Assembly: GCA_018064365.1 (NCBI GenBank)
Contig: JAGHVJ010000006.1
Coordinates: forward strand, 2,058 to 66,057
Length of the DNA stretch: 64,000 bases
Source: Candidatus Enterousia onthequi
GTDB lineage: Bacteria; Pseudomonadota; Alphaproteobacteria; Rs-D84
Direction: 5' to 3'
A program made the translations under genes and the position numbers. The stretch's first letter is position 1. Each line of letters begins with the position of its first letter. Under the pieces are notes generated by a model. It was not told the origin of the DNA and searched no databases. It was given only the letters and a program-made list of their open reading frames with translations. This document shows, piece by piece, positions 9,972 to 21,669 of the stretch.

Positions 9972-12182
9972 ATGAGAAACATTTTTTTATGTTTTTTTAC
10001 GATGCTATTGTTTGCGCCGTCGGGATTGTTTGCGGCGACGGCATCTCGTGCTACAAATCATACGGAATCTGCATCAAATTCAACCCGTGTTGCGACATCT
10101 GAACGCTCTGGTGGAATGACGCGTCCATCAACAAATACGAATAATGGTTCGCGAACAGACAAGGTTGTATCCAGAACTGGGGATAAAACACCAAGGACAT
10201 CGGAATCTTCCGCGCGGTCAACGGTTACGCGCGGTGGCGAAATATCGGTGCGGACCGGTATTGCGCCACGAACACTGGAATCTAATCGTGTTGGAATTAA
10301 ACAACGGGGGGCTGTATCAAACCGTGTTTTGAATTCTGGAAATAATACTCTGGAACGTAATATCTCTGGTCGTGCTACAATATTATCGTCATCTCAAACC
10401 CAAGGTAAAAAAGTATCTGCGGCTGATGTTGCTGCGGCCCAAGAATTATTGGAACAAACGGCCAGTTTGAATAAATCATGCCAAGAACAATATAACGAAT
10501 GTATGGACCAATTCTGCGCGGTTGTTGATGCAAATCAAAAAAGATGCAGTTGTTCGGCGAATTTATCTAAATATTCCAGTGTCCAAGATGCTGTGACAAA
10601 CGCAAACAACGAATTAAATAGTGTTGCACAAAGAATTCGTTATGTTGGTTTGTCTGCCGATGAAATTCGTGCCATTATGTCCGAGACCGAGGCCGAGGCT
10701 GAATTAGATAACAATCGTGATGTGTCTGAAACACGCAGTATGTTGTCCAAAATAGAAGAGTTAATCCAAGACCCAACCACTCGTGTCAGTACAACTGGTG
10801 GTGATTCTGATTTTGGTTTGGATATTGATTTGGATTTTTCCAATACCGATGCAGACATTTTCAGTCTTGATTTTTTAAATGGTAATAACGATTCGATTTC
10901 CAGTAAACGTGGAACGGCTTTATATAACGCTGCGAAAAAACGTTGCAAAGCAATTTTGGACAACTGTACAGATGTTGGGGCAACATCAAACCAAATTACT
11001 GGCAATTATGACCTGGCAATTGACAAAGATTGTATCGCATATGAACAAGGTTTAAAGAAAATGAACGAAACCTTGCAATCTAATGTGCGCAGTGCTGGAT
11101 TGATGTTGCAAAAGGCACGTTTGGCGGTGTTGCAAAACAAAAACCAATATGATGCCAAGGGGTGTATTGGCGCGCTGGAAACATGTATGACTGATGATAT
11201 GGTGTGTGGTTCCGATTATGCGAAATGTCTGGACCCAACCAAAAAATACATAGATGAAAATGGCAAGGTTGTATTGGGCCAAGATATTACAAATATCACA
11301 GATTTTATGTCTGGATTTAATAGTGCCAATATCGATTCTAACAAGTTGTCCACGGCAACCAGTATAACAATTAGTGACAGTACCTGCAAATCCAATGACA
11401 ATAATGACGGGACGTGTGTTGTAAAATATTTGTTGGATAAAATCGGCACTGGTGCAACTGTCAAAGATGGCGGATTGTGTCGTGCAGTTTTGGATAAATG
11501 CCAACAATATACATATAATTTATCAGGAAATAAATATAATCCGTACAATGATGTTGTTGTAAATTATATTCAACGCGCAATGGTGAATATTAAATCATCG
11601 CAACAACAAATTATTTCTGATTATGCATCAACCTGTATGACGGATGTTGCTGCATGCTATAATCAACAGGTAACCCAGGTAAATTCTTGGTCGTCCGTGG
11701 CGTCTGTATCCAGTATTCGTGGTGTGATGACGGGGGCGTGTCGTAATGTTGCATTGACATGTGCGTATGCAGTATTTGCAAATATGTGCACCACAGGTGA
11801 ACAAAATGCAATAAATTGGGTGCTGCAAGATAGCGATACCGCAGTCAATAGTAGTTCTTGCGTTCCATGTGATATTGAGCATCCATCACAATGCATAGAA
11901 GGCATTTCTGAAATATTCTACCAGTCTTTGTTATGTCCAGAAAATTCAACATATCAAACGACGGCTGGTGTGCCATCGAATCGTACAATCGAAGGTTATG
12001 TAAATACTCAATGCAAATGTAATTTGGGTTACACTTCATTTAATGGTGCATGCTTGACATCATGTGCAAATAATGAATATCGCAATGAATACGGCACATG
12101 CGCAAAATGTGACGGCTCTCTTGACAGTGTCAGTGATGGCAAAGAACATGCCACATGCACACCCGCATCCAGTGGTTCCTAA
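9972..12182 (+). CDS. Large secreted protein (paralog B of 6895..9102). Arg/Ser/Thr-rich low-complexity region followed by Cys-rich domains, including EGF-like Cys spacing at the C-terminus.
   Basis: Signal peptide MLLFAPSGLFAATASRA. C.EQYNECMDQFC......RCSC aligns with paralog A. C-terminal CKCNLGYTSFNGACLTSCANNEY...CAKCDG. Confidence 0.75.
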   Translation: MRNIFLCFFTMLLFAPSGLFAATASRATNHTESASNSTRVATSERSGGMTRPSTNTNNGSRTDKVVSRTGDKTPRTSESSARSTVTRGGEISVRTGIAPRTLESNRVGIKQRGAVSNRVLNSGNNTLERNISGRATILSSSQTQGKKVSAADVAAAQELLEQTASLNKSCQEQYNECMDQFCAVVDANQKRCSCSANLSKYSSVQDAVTNANNELNSVAQRIRYVGLSADEIRAIMSETEAEAELDNNRDVSETRSMLSKIEELIQDPTTRVSTTGGDSDFGLDIDLDFSNTDADIFSLDFLNGNNDSISSKRGTALYNAAKKRCKAILDNCTDVGATSNQITGNYDLAIDKDCIAYEQGLKKMNETLQSNVRSAGLMLQKARLAVLQNKNQYDAKGCIGALETCMTDDMVCGSDYAKCLDPTKKYIDENGKVVLGQDITNITDFMSGFNSANIDSNKLSTATSITISDSTCKSNDNNDGTCVVKYLLDKIGTGATVKDGGLCRAVLDKCQQYTYNLSGNKYNPYNDVVVNYIQRAMVNIKSSQQQIISDYASTCMTDVAACYNQQVTQVNSWSSVASVSSIRGVMTGACRNVALTCAYAVFANMCTTGEQNAINWVLQDSDTAVNSSSCVPCDIEHPSQCIEGISEIFYQSLLCPENSTYQTTAGVPSNRTIEGYVNTQCKCNLGYTSFNGACLTSCANNEYRNEYGTCAKCDGSLDSVSDGKEHATCTPASSGS

Positions 12183-12908: not shown

Positions 12909-15011
12909 TTGTATTATAATAAAGCCGTGAAATTAAATCTAGAAAATCTTAATCCTGAACAATTACGTGCCGTCCAAAAAACAGATGGCCCTGTTTTGGT
13001 GTTGGCGGGTGCGGGAACTGGAAAAACACGTGTTTTGACTACGCGCATTGGTTATATTTTAGAACAAAAATTGGCGTTTCCGTGGCAAATTTTGGCACTG
13101 ACTTTTACTAACAAGGCCGCAAATGAAATGAAATCCAGAATTGATTCAATGTCTGACGGTGAATTTATTGCCCGTGACATTTGGTGTGGCACATTTCACT
13201 CTATATGTTTGCGGATATTGCGTTCGAATTACGCAACTGTTGGATTGCGACCAGATTTTTTGATTTATGGCGAAGACGACCAAAAATCTGTTGTTAAAAA
13301 GGTTTTGAACGACCTGAATATTACAACTACAAAAAAGCCATCAGAATACATCGAAGATTTTTCCAGGATAAAGGACCGTGGTTTAACCCAAACACCGTCC
13401 ACAGACCGAATTTTTAACACGTATAACGATGAATTGCGTCGTCTAGGTGCGGTTGATTTCGGCGATATAATTTTATGTGTTTTGAATTTGTTTGAACAAA
13501 ATCCTGCGATTTTAGAGCGTTATCAAAAACAATTCAAATATATCTTGGTCGATGAATTCCAAGATACCAATGTCGCCCAGATGCAGTTGTTAAAATATTT
13601 AACACGTGGTAATGACTGTCCGAATATTTGTTGTGTTGGTGATGACGACCAATCTATTTACTCTTGGCGTGGTGCAGAAATAAAAAATATTCTAGATTTT
13701 GAAAAAACATATCCTGGCACTACTGTGATTCGTTTGGAAACAAATTATCGCAGTACAGGAAATATCTTGGGGGCTGCAAATTCATTGATACATCATAATG
13801 ATGATAGGTTGGGCAAAGATTTACACACGGTTGCAAACGGTGATGACGGTGAAAAAATATATGTGTTCACTTTATCAACCGATTTAGACGAGGCGAAGTT
13901 TATCGCCGACGCAATTATTAAAAATGGCCCGACATATAATGATAAAACAATTTTAATTCGTTCTGGGGCGTTATCTCGTTTGTTCGAAGAAGAATTTGCG
14001 CGTCGTCAAATTCCATATCGTTTAATTGGCGCAACCAAATTCTATGACCGTATGGAAATTCGTGATGTGATTGCGTATATTCGATTACTGGTGCATCCGT
14101 TTGATGATATGTCTTTTTTGCGTGTTATTGGAAAACCTCGGCGTGGTTTTGGGCCATCTGCAATTGAAAAAATGCGTGCGGCAGGCGATAATTTAATGGC
14201 TGGATTGCGTGCGTATTCGTTCCGTGGCAAACAACAAGATACCGCAAACGAGTTTTTATCAGTATTTGATTTTGATTGGGAAAATATGCCACCCCAGGAT
14301 GCTGTTAAAAAATTATTAGATTCATCTGGATACATAAAAATGTGGCAAGAATCCAAAGATGTTGATGCGCATGACCGTATAAACAATATTCACGAATTGG
14401 TAAATTCTGTTGTTGCAAAATACGATTCTTTGCATGATTTTCTGGAACAGGCGGCATTAATGATGACGGATGATAATGATGACCCAGATATATTAAACAA
14501 TAATGCCGTGAACATTATGACGATACACGCGGCCAAAGGATTAGAATTTGATAACGTATTCCTACCCGCTGTCGAAGAGGGTGTTTTTCCAAATGAAAAA
14601 TCAATCCAAGAAGGTTCTATCCAAGAAGAACGCAGACTTGCCTATGTCGCAATAACGCGTGCACGAAAATTTGTTGTTATAACTAATGCGATATCGCGCG
14701 TTATGTATGGCGAACGAAAATATAATGCTCCCAGCCGTTTTATCAGTGAAATAGATTCTTCATTTTTGGTGTTTGGTGATGATGTCGCACGTCCCACCAC
14801 ACGCCCGCAACCACATCACTATACGAATCAAACTTATGAACATAAAAAAAAGTTTGTTGCAGCGCCTCGTAAAACATTGGTTGGCCGTATGGCGCGTCAC
14901 AGTGAATACGGCACAGGTGTTATTATCGAAGAAGGAACCGGAATTTTAACAATCGCATTTGGGACGCGTGGAATTAAAAAAATTGCGCGTGATTTTGTGA
15001 CGGTTTTATAA
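12909..15011 (+). CDS. uvrD: UvrD/Rep/PcrA-family ATP-dependent DNA helicase
   Basis: LNPEQLRAV..AGAGTGKT (Walker A), DEFQDTN, TNYRS and TIHAAKGLEF motifs. TTG or GTG start. Confidence 0.9.
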   Translation: MYYNKAVKLNLENLNPEQLRAVQKTDGPVLVLAGAGTGKTRVLTTRIGYILEQKLAFPWQILALTFTNKAANEMKSRIDSMSDGEFIARDIWCGTFHSICLRILRSNYATVGLRPDFLIYGEDDQKSVVKKVLNDLNITTTKKPSEYIEDFSRIKDRGLTQTPSTDRIFNTYNDELRRLGAVDFGDIILCVLNLFEQNPAILERYQKQFKYILVDEFQDTNVAQMQLLKYLTRGNDCPNICCVGDDDQSIYSWRGAEIKNILDFEKTYPGTTVIRLETNYRSTGNILGAANSLIHHNDDRLGKDLHTVANGDDGEKIYVFTLSTDLDEAKFIADAIIKNGPTYNDKTILIRSGALSRLFEEEFARRQIPYRLIGATKFYDRMEIRDVIAYIRLLVHPFDDMSFLRVIGKPRRGFGPSAIEKMRAAGDNLMAGLRAYSFRGKQQDTANEFLSVFDFDWENMPPQDAVKKLLDSSGYIKMWQESKDVDAHDRINNIHELVNSVVAKYDSLHDFLEQAALMMTDDNDDPDILNNNAVNIMTIHAAKGLEFDNVFLPAVEEGVFPNEKSIQEGSIQEERRLAYVAITRARKFVVITNAISRVMYGERKYNAPSRFISEIDSSFLVFGDDVARPTTRPQPHHYTNQTYEHKKKFVAAPRKTLVGRMARHSEYGTGVIIEEGTGILTIAFGTRGIKKIARDFVTVL

Positions 15012-16292
15012 ATTGTTTTTTACAATATCGCGTGCTTGTTTCCAACGTTTTTTTGTAAGTTCCCACAATTTTTCTGTGTCTTTCTTTACTTTATCGCCCA
15101 GCCCAGATTCGATTTTTCCACCCCAATCAGAAGCCAATTTTTGTGATTTTTCCGCCATATAGCAAACCAACAACAGCGATAAAATCAACAATATTGCGCC
15201 GTCAAATCCGAACCCCGTCAACAGTTGTCCTGTATTTGGATTTACAACAAAAGTCAATAAAGATACAGATACACCTGTTGCCACCGCCAGACATACAAAA
15301 TAAATTGCTGCTTTGACAATGCGTGTAATTTGGGTTTCTAATTTTTCTGCTTTGAATATATCTAAAAAAGAATTAAATATATCCCCAGCAACACCCTTGT
15401 ACTGTGTTTTTGCGGTTGTTTCTGCAATCGCAGTAAACGGCAGCAATAACAAACTTAAAAATATATCTGCGATAACACCCAAGGAAATAAACAAATATTT
15501 CCAAATGTTTTTCAATGCCAAATATGTTATGTATAATCCAATAGCAGACGTGAATAAACTTGCGCCCACACCGGCAACAACCCATTTCCAACCAATTCCA
15601 ATAATCGTTGTAAAAAATGCAGACATTTGTGTTGGTATGCACAATAACCCAGCCGCAGAATCTGCGGTGATTTGCAGGTTTTCTGGTGCGCTGGTTGCGG
15701 CATATTGACGTATTGCTTCGCACGTGTCTGGCAGTTTATATCCCACAACACCAGTGATAGCATCCCATATTGTTGTAGCGATATATGTCCCTGCCGATAT
15801 AATTGGAACCATAATCGTAGTAAAAGCATGGGCAATTCCGAACTTTAATACAATCAACCACGCAGAAATAATCAAACCTTTTTTTAATATGTCTTCTACG
15901 GCTTTTTTTGCATCTCCACCAGAACCGATTAAATGATACGCTTCAAAAGCAATCAAAAACGCGTATGCAATCAACATAAACATAATTGCAAATGTTGCCA
16001 ATGAATTGTCCAATGCTACACCGACACGCGCCATACCGCCCATAAACGCCAGCCCTAATTTTGCCTCTATCGGAACATAACTGTGGGCAACAGTTGTGGC
16101 GGTTGGACCAAAGTTATTTAATTCGTCTACGATTCGACCGGTAACCAAAGAACGATTTTCTTCTGTTGCCCAAGTCCCATAATCACCAATATCCCCAGAC
16201 CCGTATGTTGTATCTGCAAACCCAGGCACTGCGATAAATATTGCAAATATCACAATTAAAATTTTTCGTAAAAAATCACGTGTTTTCATCAT
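15006..16292 (-). CDS. Polytopic membrane protein, member 1 of a 5-gene paralogous family, VirB6/TrbL-like by architecture (putative)
   Basis: Signal or TM at the N-terminus, 6 or more TM helices and a Gly-rich sequence. Similar to the neighbouring ORFs (..IVKAAIYFV.. vs ..VIKAAISVV..). Confidence 0.45.
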   Translation of the reverse strand: MMKTRDFLRKILIVIFAIFIAVPGFADTTYGSGDIGDYGTWATEENRSLVTGRIVDELNNFGPTATTVAHSYVPIEAKLGLAFMGGMARVGVALDNSLATFAIMFMLIAYAFLIAFEAYHLIGSGGDAKKAVEDILKKGLIISAWLIVLKFGIAHAFTTIMVPIISAGTYIATTIWDAITGVVGYKLPDTCEAIRQYAATSAPENLQITADSAAGLLCIPTQMSAFFTTIIGIGWKWVVAGVGASLFTSAIGLYITYLALKNIWKYLFISLGVIADIFLSLLLLPFTAIAETTAKTQYKGVAGDIFNSFLDIFKAEKLETQITRIVKAAIYFVCLAVATGVSVSLLTFVVNPNTGQLLTGFGFDGAILLILSLLLVCYMAEKSQKLASDWGGKIESGLGDKVKKDTEKLWELTKKRWKQARDIVKNNL

Positions 16293-17785
16293 GATATAAA
16301 TCCATTGTCATGCAATCTTTTTACCGCACCATCAAACCATTTGCGTGGTGCATGCCATGCCTTTTGCCCTAAATCGTGGGCCCATTTTCCGATGTCAAAT
16401 TGTTCGCCCGTTCCAACATCTGATTCTTCGCCTGGGATTGGCAATTTAACTTTGCCCGCAGGTAACAAAGCATCAACTTTTGGACTTAATACATAATAAT
16501 ATAACAAGAATAATCCAGCCATCAAAATCAAGAAAGACCACCCATCAGCCAAGAAATCAAATGCGCCTGGGTGTTCGGCTTCGATAATTTGTTTTTGTTG
16601 TTCAAAACAAGGTTTAAATAAATCTGCATCGACCAAACCGTCCGCATCTTTGGATTGTGCCTCGCATACAGAAAATGCGTTCATCACGGATTCTGCCGCC
16701 GGTGTTGTGTTTTGTGTGATTTGTGTTCCGAATAATGGTGGTAACACAGATGTATAACCGTCCACAGGACCTGGGAATGTCGCGTCCGCAGCATAGAAAA
16801 TAATCGCAAATAATAATGCAATTTTTAACGAAATAGATACAACTGAAATTGCGGCCTTGATAACCGTTTCTAATGATTTGCGGAATAATCCTGATGCTGC
16901 TTTCCATACTTTTTCATATGCCAACGCAGCAATTAAAATGGGCAAGAATATAATAACGAAAACGACTTTGAACAAAATCGAGAAAATTTGAAAGAATAAA
17001 TCAAATCCAATAACTAAAAATGCCAGAACCAAGAACAGCCCCGCAATCCATGTCAGCATACCGCCACCCAATCCCAGCCAAGCATAATTCATCAGTGCGA
17101 ATCCACCGGCGGCGCCTGCCAGCATAACAGAATATAAATTTCCAATAACGCACATAAATGAACCAGATACCGCGGCCATTGCACCAGATAATTGGGTCGC
17201 ACCCAAAATAACATTACAATCAGTTGCAGAATTTACACCCGTTGCTACCATTGATAGTGTAGAACCAATATATAAAATTGGCGAAATTAAAATTTCAGAA
17301 ATTACTTTCAAAGATGCAGTGCTATCCAAACTCAATACACCAATCGCAACACCTGCAATCATAATGCGCAACCCCAATTTCCATACTGGTTCAAACCAAG
17401 TTTGAAAATCTATATTATTTGCATTTGCGGTATATTCTGCATTTTTCTTTGATTTTTCCCAAACATATTTTATCGCAGAAATAAACATAAAAATCGCAAA
17501 TCCGGCACCCATTAAAATCCACAAATTGTTCACAATCCCAGACCAAAACATTTCAGATGCCACACCCAACATATCTAATAATTCAACGACATATTTTCCC
17601 AAAAATACAGTGCCGATATTTTCAATCCCGTTATCTGCGCCGATTGCGTGTATAAATCCGTCAACAGATGTATAGGTCAACGCAGAACCACCAATAGATG
17701 AAGATAAATACCAAATGCCCAACCCCAAGGCAACCACTATACCCAGTACTTTTAATCCCAAAGAAATCAATTTAAATTTCAGCAT
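16289..17785 (-). CDS. Polytopic membrane protein, paralog 2 (VirB6/TrbL-like, putative)
   Basis: Multi-TM. 4-nt overlap with the downstream paralog (operon). Confidence 0.45.
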   Translation of the reverse strand: MLKFKLISLGLKVLGIVVALGLGIWYLSSSIGGSALTYTSVDGFIHAIGADNGIENIGTVFLGKYVVELLDMLGVASEMFWSGIVNNLWILMGAGFAIFMFISAIKYVWEKSKKNAEYTANANNIDFQTWFEPVWKLGLRIMIAGVAIGVLSLDSTASLKVISEILISPILYIGSTLSMVATGVNSATDCNVILGATQLSGAMAAVSGSFMCVIGNLYSVMLAGAAGGFALMNYAWLGLGGGMLTWIAGLFLVLAFLVIGFDLFFQIFSILFKVVFVIIFLPILIAALAYEKVWKAASGLFRKSLETVIKAAISVVSISLKIALLFAIIFYAADATFPGPVDGYTSVLPPLFGTQITQNTTPAAESVMNAFSVCEAQSKDADGLVDADLFKPCFEQQKQIIEAEHPGAFDFLADGWSFLILMAGLFLLYYYVLSPKVDALLPAGKVKLPIPGEESDVGTGEQFDIGKWAHDLGQKAWHAPRKWFDGAVKRLHDNGFIS

Positions 17786-17798
17786 AATGATTTACCTT

Positions 17799-19004
17799 TT
17801 ACGACCTCATTTTCTCGATAATAATTTTAGCGGGTTTTTTGATATAGTTATTAGCAAATCCTTTTGTTAAATTCATTAAACTATCGCCAAATTCTTTGCC
17901 AACCGCATTGTCGCTGGCTTGGACTTGGAACATGCCCAAAACAGTCTTTGTAATATTTGGAATATTACTATAAATAAATCCTAGTACATAAACCAAGACC
18001 ACAACACTAATCAGTGTTAAATCGTTTATGCCCGTTTGATTTAAATCTGTTTCAAATACAGTCCCATCCATAATTGCAGCCAACAAAGTATCAAAGTTAT
18101 TTAGATTGCCGTCTGGGTCTGCAAAGAATTTCACAATAATCACCAAAATCACAGTGTATGTAATTATCGCCACCCCCAAAGATATTATAGCACCAACCAT
18201 ATTTTTTATCTGTTCAACACCGACCCCTTTGCCCAGGGATTTTATCCAACTCAACCAATATGGAACATCTGCTGATTCCTTAAATGCAGTGGTAACCAAA
18301 GATAACGGAAAGAAAAATGCAAACATCGCCATGGCGATAATAACATCTATGAAATAACACAAAAATTGGAAAAACATTTTGAAAAACGCCCAAAACAAAT
18401 ACACCCCGATAAATGCCAATAATAAATGTTTTATAAATGCCCCAATCCCCATAAACATAGCCCATGAAAACCCAGTGTCTAACATTGCGACGCCCAGTTT
18501 CATAAACGATTGAAACAAAGTAAGTGTGACTTTTGCGGTATTGATAATAGAATCACGTAATTCTTGTCTGAATATCCCACCAGAATCATCCATCGGTTGT
18601 GGGGTGTATTCAATGTGTTCTTCAATTTGTTCTGGGGTCAATTGTATCATAGCAGATGCATAGTTTTGTGTCACAATAGCCACCGGTTCAAAAGCCACCT
18701 GGGTTATAAAACGTGGCAACATAACCCCCATGCCCAAAAAAGTCAAAGCAAACAAAGAATTTATAAAAACAGGCCGTATAGATTTGTTAAACCAACCATC
18801 TTGAAAGCCTTCCTTCATGTTTTTCCAAACCGCACCAAAAATATAAAACGCAAATATTGCACAGAATAAAATTGTGCAAATAAGAACGAATTTAGGATAT
18901 GCCGCTGCAGCCGCATCTGACACAATTTGAAACATGCGGTCAAATATCGGACAAGACCAACATTGCGCAGTATTATCGATAAAGGATTGTGCCAAATTAT
19001 TCAT
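17799..19004 (-). CDS. Polytopic membrane protein, paralog 3 (VirB6/TrbL-like, putative)
   Basis: The N-terminal motif CWSCPIF before the first TM is shared with 20347..21669 (CWSCQIF). Confidence 0.45.
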   Translation of the reverse strand: MNNLAQSFIDNTAQCWSCPIFDRMFQIVSDAAAAAYPKFVLICTILFCAIFAFYIFGAVWKNMKEGFQDGWFNKSIRPVFINSLFALTFLGMGVMLPRFITQVAFEPVAIVTQNYASAMIQLTPEQIEEHIEYTPQPMDDSGGIFRQELRDSIINTAKVTLTLFQSFMKLGVAMLDTGFSWAMFMGIGAFIKHLLLAFIGVYLFWAFFKMFFQFLCYFIDVIIAMAMFAFFFPLSLVTTAFKESADVPYWLSWIKSLGKGVGVEQIKNMVGAIISLGVAIITYTVILVIIVKFFADPDGNLNNFDTLLAAIMDGTVFETDLNQTGINDLTLISVVVLVYVLGFIYSNIPNITKTVLGMFQVQASDNAVGKEFGDSLMNLTKGFANNYIKKPAKIIIEKMRS

Positions 19005-19006
19005 AA

Positions 19007-20284
19007 TTATCCCTTAAAAAATTTAACAACATTTTTCACCTTGCCAGGCACAGCCTTGGCCATGCCCCATGTTGTTTTTGCATCGCCTTTGACCTGGTTA
19101 TACAATGCGGTTGCGTCTTTGCCGACATATCCTGTCAATTTTTCGCGTGTGATTTCAAATATTTTATTCATTAAAAAGAAAGTCAATAAACAAGATAACC
19201 ATAAAACAGAATGCCCGCCAAATCCACTGGATAAAGAATCCATGCTTGGTAAATTAGAATACGCAACGCCACCCGCTGCTGTGACGAACATACGACTGTT
19301 CCATTGGAACAAAGCGCGCACCAATGCCAAATTTACACACAATATAAATGCACATGCAATCATTGTCACAACCATTTGTTTTAATGCAGTTATAATGCCA
19401 GAAAAAGCAGGCCATATATCAAACCAACTGTCGCTTTTTTTTGCAACCCATGCGGCCACACCAAAAGGATATAAAATCAAAGCCATACCAAAATTAAATA
19501 TCGTTTGAATAATCAACAAAGCCATAAATAAATTGCACCCCGTAAATGTTATAATCAACAAAATACCAGAAATAATATTCATAAAACCTTGACCGCTGTT
19601 GTGCGACATTAATGTGGTTAAAGTACGCAGTCCATTAGACAAATAAGTAAGCCCACGTTTTATTACAGTATTGTTTGCATGAGACAAAACATGCACAGGT
19701 TGAATTAAATATTCACAAGATTCTGTGTCCAACCAACCCTGTGCCATTAAATTTGATGGACATTGCACCGCGCGCATATCTTCTAAATTTACATCAGATG
19801 CAGCCTTCATAATTTCGGTAGTAAACAAAGAACCAAAACTTAAAAAAGGATTAATCAAATGTTTGGTCATAAAATCTGGCCGTAATGGCAACAAAAGTAT
19901 GGCCGCAACCAATACGCGTATTGCAGGTTTTGCAACATTGTTTGCGATTTTCATTCCGTCAGTATTCTCGATAGAATCCCCAGATTTGAATCCAAATGTG
20001 GACATCCAATATTTAGGAACAAATAATTTAATCAAATACAACGCGACATAAAATACAAAAAATCCCCATACTAATAAATAAATTATACCGTCGTGATTTT
20101 GCCCAACGAAATAAGCATAAGTCCCATTTGCAACAAACATAAATGCATCCAGTACAATAGGCACTAATTTTGAAATGTCCAAAGAATCAACATCAATCAG
20201 ACCCCATCCTGCCAACGCCACACTGGGCACGAATGAGCAGAACAATAAAGTGCATCCAATTAAAAATTTTTTAATACAATTCAT
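19007..20284 (-). CDS. Polytopic membrane protein, paralog 4 (VirB6/TrbL-like, putative)
   Basis: Signal peptide. Motif IRVLVAAILLLPLRP matches IRVLFVGALLLVPLPR in 20347..21669. Confidence 0.45.
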   Translation of the reverse strand: MNCIKKFLIGCTLLFCSFVPSVALAGWGLIDVDSLDISKLVPIVLDAFMFVANGTYAYFVGQNHDGIIYLLVWGFFVFYVALYLIKLFVPKYWMSTFGFKSGDSIENTDGMKIANNVAKPAIRVLVAAILLLPLRPDFMTKHLINPFLSFGSLFTTEIMKAASDVNLEDMRAVQCPSNLMAQGWLDTESCEYLIQPVHVLSHANNTVIKRGLTYLSNGLRTLTTLMSHNSGQGFMNIISGILLIITFTGCNLFMALLIIQTIFNFGMALILYPFGVAAWVAKKSDSWFDIWPAFSGIITALKQMVVTMIACAFILCVNLALVRALFQWNSRMFVTAAGGVAYSNLPSMDSLSSGFGGHSVLWLSCLLTFFLMNKIFEITREKLTGYVGKDATALYNQVKGDAKTTWGMAKAVPGKVKNVVKFFKG

Positions 20285-20346
20285 CTCTTATAATATTATT
20301 ATTGTAATTATAACATAAATCGATAAAATTATGTTATAATTAAAAT

Positions 20347-21669
20347 ATGAATTGGCTAAAAAAATTTTGGATAGTTTTTACATCTTTCTTGCCGTTTTCA
20401 GCAGGGGCTTTTTCGCCACTTTTAATTGGTGGAATTGCGTTTGGCGGTGGAATAATTGGGGTTTCTATTTGGCGCAATGTGTCCCCTGTAAATATGTCTG
20501 ACGCATTATCTTTTTTTTCCAGTTGTTGGTCATGTCAAATTTTTTCAGATGTTGTCGCAACAATGTCAAATATTATTCCTGTGACCTATAAATCTTTGGG
20601 TGGTATAATAATACCATTTGCAATTGTTTTGACAGCAGTATGGTTTGCGTGGCAATTATTGACATTGTTTATCACGCCCGGTCAAGATAAACAGATAAAT
20701 AATTTAGGGTGGAGTCTTGCAGGACAATGGGGAACTCATGTTATTCGTGTTTTATTTGTAGGGGCATTGTTGCTTGTTCCATTACCGCGAATGATTTCAT
20801 CTGTTGTACTGGAACCTGTGTTTAATATTGGTTTGTCTATGAATTATACAATGTCTGTGGCTGATGCTCGCCAGAACTATGCAAATTGCATAATTGCAAC
20901 TGCGGTCTCGGATGTGTCTGCAACCCGGACAGATACTGCAAATCCTGGTATAAATGCATTTTCACCGCGATTTCGTCATAACTTAACATGTCAAATTGCA
21001 AATATACATCAAATGACAGGTTTGGGAATGACAATTGGTTGGACAATGTTAAATATGGCGTTTAACTATGATTATATGCATAAATTGATGTGGGGAATAC
21101 CGATTTTTCCCAATGTGCCATTGATATTGACGGGGCTTTTGATATTGGCGCTGTATTTATCTGCATTATTGCCGATACCATTATATTTCTTGGAAATATT
21201 TATCAAATTATCTATTGATTTTGTTTTGTTGCCATTGACACTGTTATCGTGGATATTCAAAGGTTGGAAAATATTTCCGTCTGGCAAGGGAAATATAAAA
21301 CAAATCATAGATGATGTTATTTCTGGTGTTTTAGGTTTGGCAATGACGGGCATATTTATAACATTTTCAATAATGTTGTTAAATGCGGCTTTTGGTAATT
21401 GGAAAGGTGCATCTGCATTACAAACTGCGATTACCCAAAACGATTCGAAAATTTTAATAGATTCGTTAATGTCCACCACAGGCAGTAAATCTCTGATAAC
21501 CATAATATTGATGGGGATATTTATGACTATGTTTATGGTGATGATACCTGCATTGATAAAGTCGTTATTTAACATAACAGTATCTGATAAATACTATCAA
21601 ACCGCAAAAAAAGATATAAATTTATTGTGGAATGGCGCGAAAAAGTGGTGGTCTGCCGCAAAAAAATAA
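20347..21669 (+). CDS. Polytopic membrane protein, paralog 5, divergently transcribed (VirB6/TrbL-like, putative)
   Basis: Shares the CWSCQIF and IRVLF..LLLVPLPR motifs with the paralogs on the opposite strand. Confidence 0.45.
   Translation: MNWLKKFWIVFTSFLPFSAGAFSPLLIGGIAFGGGIIGVSIWRNVSPVNMSDALSFFSSCWSCQIFSDVVATMSNIIPVTYKSLGGIIIPFAIVLTAVWFAWQLLTLFITPGQDKQINNLGWSLAGQWGTHVIRVLFVGALLLVPLPRMISSVVLEPVFNIGLSMNYTMSVADARQNYANCIIATAVSDVSATRTDTANPGINAFSPRFRHNLTCQIANIHQMTGLGMTIGWTMLNMAFNYDYMHKLMWGIPIFPNVPLILTGLLILALYLSALLPIPLYFLEIFIKLSIDFVLLPLTLLSWIFKGWKIFPSGKGNIKQIIDDVISGVLGLAMTGIFITFSIMLLNAAFGNWKGASALQTAITQNDSKILIDSLMSTTGSKSLITIILMGIFMTMFMVMIPALIKSLFNITVSDKYYQTAKKDINLLWNGAKKWWSAAKK

Follow-up and report, generated by a model that had tools for sequence, protein, structure and literature searches.

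The window analysed here, a 64-kb stretch of a contig from Candidatus Enterousia onthequi, contains a compact array of five genes for polytopic membrane proteins (paralogs A through E) that probably belong, as very divergent members, to the VirB6/TrbL proteins of type IV secretion systems (T4SSs). In P-type (VirB/D4) T4SSs, VirB6 is the polytopic inner-membrane component at the base of the stalk and translocation channel. Four of the genes lie in tandem on the minus strand and pack like an operon, separated in turn by a 2-bp gap, a 13-bp gap, and a 4-bp overlap: paralog D (19007 through 20284; 425 residues), the first gene, paralog C (17799 through 19004; 401 residues), paralog B (16289 through 17785; 498 residues), and paralog A (15006 through 16292; 428 residues), the last. 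Paralog E (20347 through 21669; 440 residues) is transcribed divergently on the plus strand, its start 62 bp from D; the intervening segment (20285 through 20346) is presumed to be a bidirectional promoter region. Gene F (21736 through 22248, plus strand; 170 residues), which encodes a soluble protein, begins 66 bp after E. A preliminary reading of the DNA letters (the sequence-only reading) had described five open reading frames (ORFs) of 401 to 498 residues, four in tandem and one divergent, and this arrangement is confirmed exactly.

Each of the five proteins has six to eight hydropathy peaks, in agreement with the multiple transmembrane segments ascribed to them at the outset. An enrichment in Gly, Ile, and Phe had also been proposed; it stands for Ile and Phe, which together with Leu exceed the window background in the paralogs, and Gly is raised in A and B only. 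The short motifs singled out by the sequence-only reading (CWSC followed by P or Q and IF, an IRVL-type, and a KAAI-type motif) are all present. CWSCPIF lies at residue 15 of C and CWSCQIF at residue 60 of E; IRVLFVGALLLVPL, at residue 133 of E, is a one-residue indel apart from IRVLVAAILLLPLRP in D; and IVKAAI at residue 325 of A has its counterpart in VIKAAI at residue 308 of B. In 41 orthologs of paralog C, residues C15, C18, and P233 never vary and W253 hardly does; in 51 orthologs of paralog E, W61 and C63 are likewise invariant and C60 is at least 90% conserved. Across 75 remote homologs of E, conservation of the CxxC reaches 90% or more. Because of this conservation in orthologs and remote homologs, the motifs are not chance resemblances. 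The consensus of the B family reads CFLC near residue 62, at the position of CWSC in C and E; the window copy of B and its close relatives read VFLG (residues about 58 through 66), and both cysteines have thus been lost in that clade.

The five proteins share a common layout. One or more N-terminal hydrophobic segments (signal-peptide-like in D; none in C, where nothing hydrophobic lies ahead of the CWSCPIF motif) are followed by two transmembrane segments and then by a hydrophilic central loop of 63 to 108 residues, which holds two ortholog-invariant Cys in A, B, D, and E and one Cys in C. After this loop come a tight pair of transmembrane segments, two more transmembrane segments, and a Lys/Arg-rich C-terminal tail (8 to 13 Lys and Arg residues). 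Paralog B is a variant in which the VirB6-like core is extended by an extra C-terminal, Cys-containing region and a last transmembrane segment: one transmembrane segment follows the tight pair, then an 84-residue hydrophilic region, then the final one. VirB6 proteins are described as polytopic inner-membrane proteins with at least five transmembrane segments, a large central loop, and a cytoplasmic C terminus (PMC6120205). The architecture of the paralogs fits this description, with a predicted orientation taken from crude hydropathy and from the alignment register to Agrobacterium tumefaciens VirB6.

In that register a family-invariant proline (P285 in A, P282 in B, P233 in C, P273 in D, and P296 in E) lies within a transmembrane helix that aligns to the GPL helix of VirB6. 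In hhalign alignments the A. tumefaciens VirB6 helix AIGPLILVGYIFDRTRDIAAKW aligns to the invariant-Pro helix of all five paralogs, and a short charged loop comes next. Tryptophans follow the Pro helix in B (W294, invariant), E (W302 and W307, both invariant), C (W250 and the nearly invariant W253), and D (W287 and W291, nearly invariant). The spacing of P273 and W291 in D (+18) equals that of P179 and W197 in A. tumefaciens VirB6; the Trp residues of C and D fall within one to three alignment columns of W197, and those of B and E lie 10 to 13 residues upstream. The sequence-only reading had looked for a conserved Trp in a large periplasmic loop. The literature places the conserved VirB6-family Trp in the cytoplasmic loop between the third and fourth transmembrane domains (PMC7648143); in the corresponding predicted loop, B, C, D, and E have a Trp and A does not.

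Detectable mutual similarity, also proposed earlier, is borne out by profiles; pairwise BLASTP separates only C-E (53 bits) and A-D (38 bits), every other pair scoring 25 bits or less, and the best local alignments between paralogs show about 20 to 28% identity. Family profiles of about 80 orthologs each were compared using hhalign, with gene F (soluble) and ComEC (polytopic, encoded at the same loci) as controls. Scores reached 97.2% for C-E, 96.4% for A-D, 90.0% for A-E, 65.5% for B-E, 62.9% for D-E, 45.6% for B-C, and 36.6% for A-B, and the C-E, A-D, A-E, B-E, D-E, and B-C alignments are collinear over about 250 to 350 columns. Against the same paralog profiles F scored 0.4% or less and ComEC 0.7% or less. 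Based on this network and the near-zero controls, the five form one connected family, in which B has the weakest direct link.

To connect this family to VirB6, the sequence-only reading had pointed to the Pfam model PF04610 (TrbL/VirB6; gathering score 25.9 bits) and taken a lack of matches to speak against the assignment. None of the five proteins matches it, and deeper tests were therefore needed. The E-family profile, searched against 1.84 billion representative proteins, returned 231 matches, many of them 400 to 1500 residues long and aligned over profile positions of about 50 through 400. PF04610 is matched by 25 of the 75 remote hits that were scanned and is by far the most frequent family there. 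As a reference set we used ten genuine VirB6 proteins from annotated plasmids, each encoded between virB5 and virB7/B8; the resulting hidden Markov model (HMM) matches 13 of the remote E-profile proteins at 17 to 30 bits, always over VirB6 positions of about 137 through 313 and collinear with the E-profile match.

A bridge profile was made from these 13 proteins, without any sequence from Rs-D84, the order of the host. It scores 96.8% against genuine VirB6 (E-value 2.9e-10 over 254 columns); 98.8, 99.0, 98.8, 97.7, and 99.9% against A, B, C, D, and E, respectively; and 0.2% against the controls F and ComEC. How the bridge proteins were selected has no bearing on the scores of A, B, C, and D. 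Run as an HMM over all window ORFs of 50 residues or more, the bridge ranks exactly the five paralogs first (E-values of 1.5e-47 for E, 1.6e-16 for D, 2.5e-13 for C, 8.6e-9 for A, and 1e-5 for B); the next ORF has an E-value of 0.11. A word-indexed search with the bridge alignment returned only four proteins, with no useful names, and a cluster look-up of the bridge proteins yielded almost none. Four of the 75 remote VirB6-like proteins also carry Peptidase_M23, one of them (P0222; 999 residues) being named "M23 family metallopeptidase"; such a fusion of a VirB6-like membrane domain to a peptidoglycan hydrolase might substitute for VirB1.

Predicted structures point in the same direction. The AlphaFold2 model of E has a predicted local distance difference test (pLDDT) score of 69 and a predicted template modelling (pTM) score of 0.64; in a Foldseek comparison with the PDB its top five hits are TrwI/VirB6 chains of R388, with probabilities of 0.92 to 0.99 and a target TM-score of up to 0.48. 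The model of B (pLDDT 67.6; pTM 0.65), chosen as the weakest member of the family, retrieves TrwI/VirB6 chains 8rtd_L and 8rt9_F with a probability of 1.00 and a target TM-score of 0.47. R388 TrwI/VirB6 provides the only hits above a probability of 0.9 for either model, and no transporter structure exceeds 0.3 in the Foldseek searches of E and B.

All 873 homologs of E and 686 of B come from uncultured Alphaproteobacteria and are unannotated or labelled "hypothetical protein". A scan of one genome per species gave 80 loci from Candidatus Enterousia species, uncultured Alphaproteobacteria, and some metagenome-assembled genomes (MAGs) labelled "uncultured Rickettsiales", sampled from human, rodent, chicken, horse, and ruminant guts; one of these loci lies in a circular MAG of 958,618 bp. 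Enterousia is placed in GTDB order Rs-D84, whose genomes are smaller than 1 Mb and lack the tricarboxylic acid cycle, respiration, and standard transporters; an obligate symbiotic or parasitic lifestyle has been suggested, with metabolites taken from partner cells (PMC12306168). The same study discusses only "hypothetical membrane-bound proteins" as possible mediators of interactions with other cells, and nowhere mentions secretion systems.

Gene order is fixed throughout this lineage. Of 86 related loci, 82 contain all six genes, and in every one of the 82 the order and orientation are A-, B-, C-, D-, E+, F+; this synteny is identical down to 54% identity of E. Orthologs of A are present in 83 of the 86 loci, the absences all falling at contig ends; since every short or missing copy sits at a contig end, there are no pseudogenes. 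Median identities to the window copies are 42% for A (the least conserved of the five), 49% for B, 49% for C, 51% for D, 57% for E, and 76% for F. Among the paralogs E is the best conserved, and it also stands nearest to the wider VirB6-like family. The array is flanked by housekeeping genes, with a dnaQ-like exonuclease gene and uvrD on one side and usually HAD hydrolase, RmuC, def, fmt, and truA genes on the other (def, fmt, and truA named from locus L001). Its G+C content (0.36 to 0.39) equals that of the rest of the window, and no integrase, relaxase, or repeats were seen. The housekeeping flanks, fixed order, intact genes, and matching G+C identify a vertically inherited chromosomal module rather than a mobile element. 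In one subclade (L001, L002, L010, and L015) the A ortholog is 625 to 631 residues long; the L001 copy (4044 through 5939, minus strand), the only one of these scanned with Pfam, has a C-terminal small GTPase domain (MMR_HSR1/Arf, residues 470 through 630), which makes it a VirB6-like protein with a fused cytoplasmic GTPase.

Other T4SS genes are present in the window. A VirB8-VirB9-VirB10 islet, about 30 kb from the array and also on the minus strand, begins with a VirB8 homolog (55174 through 55947; 257 residues; PF04335, E-value 3.5e-6, 27.4 bits against a cut-off of 23.2), followed by a VirB9/CagX homolog (53632 through 55149; 505 residues; PF03524 CagX, E-value 2.2e-21, with a weak C-terminal match to the peptidoglycan-binding SPOR domain) and an extended VirB10/TrbI homolog (51116 through 53596; 826 residues; PF03743 TrbI, E-value 5.1e-15, residues 400 through 608). 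Unusual in its length, the VirB10 homolog contains a Pro/Glu-rich linker and ends in a Cys-rich tail. VirB8 and VirB9 each occur only once in the window, and VirB5 was not seen there. Phmmer queries with the canonical VirB1 through VirB11 and VirD4 proteins of two plasmids gave no hit in the window, missing even the VirB8, VirB9, and VirB10 detected by Pfam; as these are too divergent for phmmer, the failure of PF04610 on the VirB6 copies is unsurprising. In the loci around the array the same query set found a single VirD4.

A clear VirD4 (PF02534, E-value 2e-50), on one Enterousia contig (L082; 3999 through 6260, minus strand), directly follows E-F. It has 126 relatives in the lineage, from gut metagenomes, which usually stand alone among housekeeping genes (IF-2, sigma factor, RluB, and RsmE genes on one side; LpoB, EngA, and LpxD genes on the other); in a 935-kb contig, for instance, VirD4 is solitary among such genes, and the VirD4 gene of locus L104 lies at 10049 through 12235 on the plus strand. 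The window has the same neighbours, namely the sigma factor gene, a gene for a 339-residue protein of unknown function, and the LpxD gene (together 44769 through 48710), but no VirD4 between them, nor do VirB11 and VirD4 follow VirB10. Across 80 VirD4 loci no VirB4, VirB11, VirB8 through VirB10, or VirB6-like genes were found, Pfam matches of the neighbours being to housekeeping families only. The sequence-only reading was correct that no virB3 or virB4 adjoins the array: neither turned up in the window or, across the 86 loci, within 10 kb of the array.

Taken together, we consider it likely that the five ORFs encode ancient, highly divergent VirB6/TrbL paralogs of a chromosomal, vertically inherited, and scattered T4SS that resembles the Rickettsiales vir homolog (rvh) system. 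The five are paralogs, and transitive profile matches together with predicted folds place them within the VirB6 superfamily; all five genes and their order are strictly conserved, and other T4SS components are present. The proteins are accordingly best filed in the VirB6/TrbL superfamily on transitive and model-based structural evidence, not as members of PF04610, and we call the system rvh-like rather than rvh. The sequence-only reading had weighed a rearranged VirB6 locus against an expanded membrane-protein family with no relation to VirB6. The first of these is supported by the bridge profile, the PF04610-matching relatives, the TrwI-like folds, and the presence of VirB8, VirB9, and VirB10 in the window and of VirD4 in the lineage. 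With the order the same in 82 of 82 loci, the missing virB3 and virB4 and the divergent member are fixed lineage features of a scattered T4SS rather than a recent rearrangement.

Several observations weigh against this assignment. Paralogs A through E have no match in Pfam (including PF04610) or in NCBIfam (including its T4SS models), even at E-values up to 1, and in direct hhalign comparisons with the ten-VirB6 profile A scores 6.0%, D 1.0%, B 0.8%, E 0.6%, and C 0.5%. The bridge scores of E and of VirB6 itself are partly circular, because the bridge proteins were chosen for matching both. Profile searches of PDB sequences with the E family and with the bridge alignment returned nothing significant, TrwI appearing at an E-value of 4.8; the Foldseek hits have E-values of 0.04 to 0.06 and TM-scores of 0.45 to 0.47 for models of moderate confidence, and with such marginal E-values the fold evidence is supportive, not decisive. 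Paralog A lacks the loop Trp and has Y298 in its place, and the membrane orientation given above is a crude hydropathy estimate. Finally, searches of the window and of the 10 kb around the array and around VirD4 turned up no VirB2, VirB3, VirB4, or VirB11, which leaves a complete working T4SS putative.

The gaps in the gene set leave room, if little, for a VirB6 fold that has been uncoupled from secretion. The array adjoins no other T4SS gene, virB3 and virB4 are absent within 10 kb in 86 loci, a gene for a large secreted Cys-rich protein is conserved upstream in 59 loci, and ComEC is encoded nearby; a lineage without standard transporters, for which metabolite uptake from partners has been proposed (PMC12306168), could conceivably use such a platform to take up metabolites or DNA from partner cells, or to export or anchor the Cys-rich surface proteins. 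We regard this as improbable. The same reduced genomes keep VirB8, VirB9, VirB10, and VirD4, which argues for a working T4SS that would need VirB6; scattered T4SS islets are normal for rvh systems (PMC7648143); and VirD4 directly follows E-F on the Enterousia contig described above.

That the resemblance to VirB6 is compositional noise common to helical bundles, and the array an unrelated lineage-specific family of transporters or channels, is very unlikely in our view and was the second option of the sequence-only reading. It would account for the silence of PF04610 and NCBIfam, direct hhalign scores of 6% or less, and the marginal Foldseek E-values; it is disfavoured by profile and fold comparisons. 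Controls score 0.2 to 1%, against 97.7 to 99.9% for A through E, with a profile that matches genuine VirB6 at 96.8%; Pfam-validated TrbL proteins occur in homologous arrays; VirB6 chains are retrieved at 0.92 to 1.00 by two independent models in which no transporter fold exceeds 0.3; and the Pfam and NCBIfam scans yield no transporter family for any of the five. A transporter family, having neither profile nor fold support, was rejected. TrbL/VirB6 genes are typical of conjugative elements, and the absence of neighbouring T4SS genes could suggest the decaying remnant of an integrated conjugative element or plasmid with TrbL-type mating-pair-formation genes. We give this hardly any credence: housekeeping genes flank the array on both sides, all 82 loci share one synteny, the five genes are intact everywhere, G+C matches the window, and integrase, relaxase, and repeats were not seen. 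An integrated conjugative element was accordingly rejected on the housekeeping flanks, perfect synteny, and uniform G+C.

Returning to divergent VirB6 paralogs of an rvh-like T4SS, a mechanism can be proposed. D, C, B, and A would be co-transcribed, with E-F expressed divergently from the shared 62-bp region. Once inserted in the inner membrane, each protein would expose to the periplasm its N-terminal segment, with the CxxC where present, and a large loop with the conserved Cys pair; the Pro-containing third transmembrane segment would lead into a short basic cytoplasmic loop, with Trp in four of the five, and the Lys-rich tail would be cytoplasmic. Together the five proteins may build an inner-membrane platform or stalk through which substrates recruited by VirD4 would pass to the VirB8/9/10 scaffold. 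All five genes are kept intact in every genome under strong genome reduction, and their products share only about 20 to 28% identity, which argues that the paralogs are not redundant. The VirB6 paralogs of Ehrlichia interact with each other, to judge by the title of a paper that PMC8035066 cites; by analogy, the five most likely co-assemble into a hetero-oligomeric platform. A stricter version, in which five obligate subunits, one of each, form a hetero-pentameric VirB6 platform or stalk that replaces VirB5, and in which the multi-VirB6 design predates Rickettsiales or arose convergently in a gut lineage that exploits its neighbours, seems to us rather unlikely as it stands.

Gene F, a probable operon partner of E, is the most conserved gene of the module and lies directly after E at all 82 loci. 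Its product lacks transmembrane segments and has no match in Pfam, NCBIfam, or the PDB, including a profile search of PDB sequences with the F family; it is unrelated to A through E by hhalign, and no homolog of it was found near the VirB6-like arrays of other lineages. F may serve the T4SS as an accessory factor, or it may be an essential gene unconnected with it. Elsewhere around the array, a scan for promoters and terminators gave nothing above shuffled background; the weak promoter-like hexamers on the plus strand at the 62-bp D-E region (20271 through 20299 and 20302 through 20329) were no better than that background. The 3' ends of the convergent uvrD (plus strand, ending at 15011) and paralog A (minus strand, ending at 15006) share 6 bp, which leaves no room for a terminator between the two genes.

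Beyond dnaQ and uvrD, the window encodes two large secreted proteins of 735 and 736 residues (6895 through 9102 and 9972 through 12182, both plus strand) with 26 and 33 Cys, respectively. Both have Ser/Thr/Asn-rich N termini and no Pfam match, and they are weak paralogs of each other (27% identity over 236 residues). The 736-residue protein is the one conserved upstream of the dnaQ-uvrD-array block in 59 loci. Both are candidate surface proteins, adhesins, or substrates.

VirB6 paralog arrays are already well known, and the finding is therefore not categorically new; what is new is a previously unrecognised and unmodelled VirB6 subfamily with a distinct gene organisation. Within the literature we found, in which PMC12306168 is the only genomic description of the order, this is the first indication of a T4SS in Rs-D84/Enterousia. 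Hundreds of "hypothetical" proteins from human, mouse, chicken, and ruminant samples that escape Pfam and NCBIfam can now be recognised as putative VirB6 proteins and point to a T4SS that would supply a concrete and testable mechanism for the proposed symbiotic or parasitic lifestyle. A wider, unmodelled VirB6 subfamily, with 231 representatives among the 1.84 billion proteins searched, is defined by the bridge profile together with the conserved CxxC and could be converted into a profile for annotation. A second lineage with five short, co-retained paralogs also offers a simpler system and a comparative handle on whether such paralogs co-assemble.

Among known systems the closest likeness, drawn from published descriptions of RvhB6, is to rvh. 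Multicopy, tandem, and divergent VirB6 is an rvh feature (PMC11077975, PMC8035066), with five RvhB6 copies in Rickettsia and four in Anaplasma, Ehrlichia, and Wolbachia (PMC8035066, PMC7648143, bioRxiv 2025.08.29.673095); it is treated as a hallmark of Rickettsiales, and its purpose has been called "a mystery" (bioRxiv 2025.08.29.673095). In both cases four or five tandem and mutually very divergent copies occur in a reduced alphaproteobacterial genome, conservation is confined to the central transmembrane core, and T4SS islets are dispersed among housekeeping genes with VirB8-9-10 apart (here the array, the VirB8-9-10 islet, and a solitary VirD4). In rvh systems the virB6 array belongs to an operon led by virB3 and virB4, and its products include "extended" VirB6 proteins with large hydrophilic N- or C-terminal regions (PMC7648143). 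In contrast, the window array has no leading virB3-virB4, the divergent E lying upstream of D and bringing with it the conserved soluble partner F; its paralogs are short (401 to 498 residues) and free of large extensions, except for the 625- to 631-residue A orthologs of four loci, and are too divergent for PF04610. An N-terminal CxxC, common to the wider unannotated clade, is found in B (in most orthologs), C, and E. Systems of the rvh type have duplicated VirB4, VirB8, and VirB9 and no VirB5 (PMC11077975), and in the window VirB11 and VirD4 do not follow VirB10. The host also differs, belonging to a gut lineage in GTDB order Rs-D84 and not to the classical Rickettsiales, although some NCBI records of related loci are labelled "uncultured Rickettsiales bacterium".

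In their predicted architecture the paralogs resemble the VirB6 proteins of plasmid P-type systems (A. tumefaciens VirB6, 295 residues; R388 TrwI, PDB: 7O3V and 8RT9; TraD): polytopic inner-membrane proteins with a long central loop, a Pro-containing transmembrane helix, a short basic loop after it that holds a Trp (in four of the five paralogs), and a C-terminal tail rich in basic residues. R388 TrwI is the best structural match for the predicted models of E and B; in the primary structure paper on R388, VirB6 is reportedly a pentamer at the base of the stalk. Plasmid VirB6 is single-copy and encoded between virB5 and virB7/B8 in one operon, whereas the window has five copies, 100 to 200 residues longer, with extra N-terminal segments and Cys motifs, and intermediates are needed to detect sequence similarity between the two groups. 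Substrate transfer requires VirB6, and VirB8 and VirB10 are among its interaction partners (PMC6120205).

Comparable arrays occur at loci of other uncultured, probably alphaproteobacterial, lineages that the E profile reaches. One of them (L099; 6128 through 11416) has four tandem VirB6-like genes (466, 425, 399, and 471 residues) with housekeeping flanks and no adjacent virB3 or virB4, as in the window; it differs in that two members pass PF04610 (34.8 and 29.0 bits) and all genes lie on one strand. Another (L098; 4289 through 17362) has five tandem genes for proteins of 474 to 857 residues and, just upstream on the opposite strand, a gene for one of 664 residues; the E profile matches the five tandem genes of this locus and all four of the other. 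VirB6-like proteins of these other lineages differ from those of the window in that many are 600 to 1500 residues long, some are fused to Peptidase_M23, and no F homolog accompanies them. With chromosomal arrays of four to six genes between housekeeping flanks at both of these loci, the multi-VirB6 layout without adjacent virB3 or virB4 is therefore more widespread than Rs-D84.

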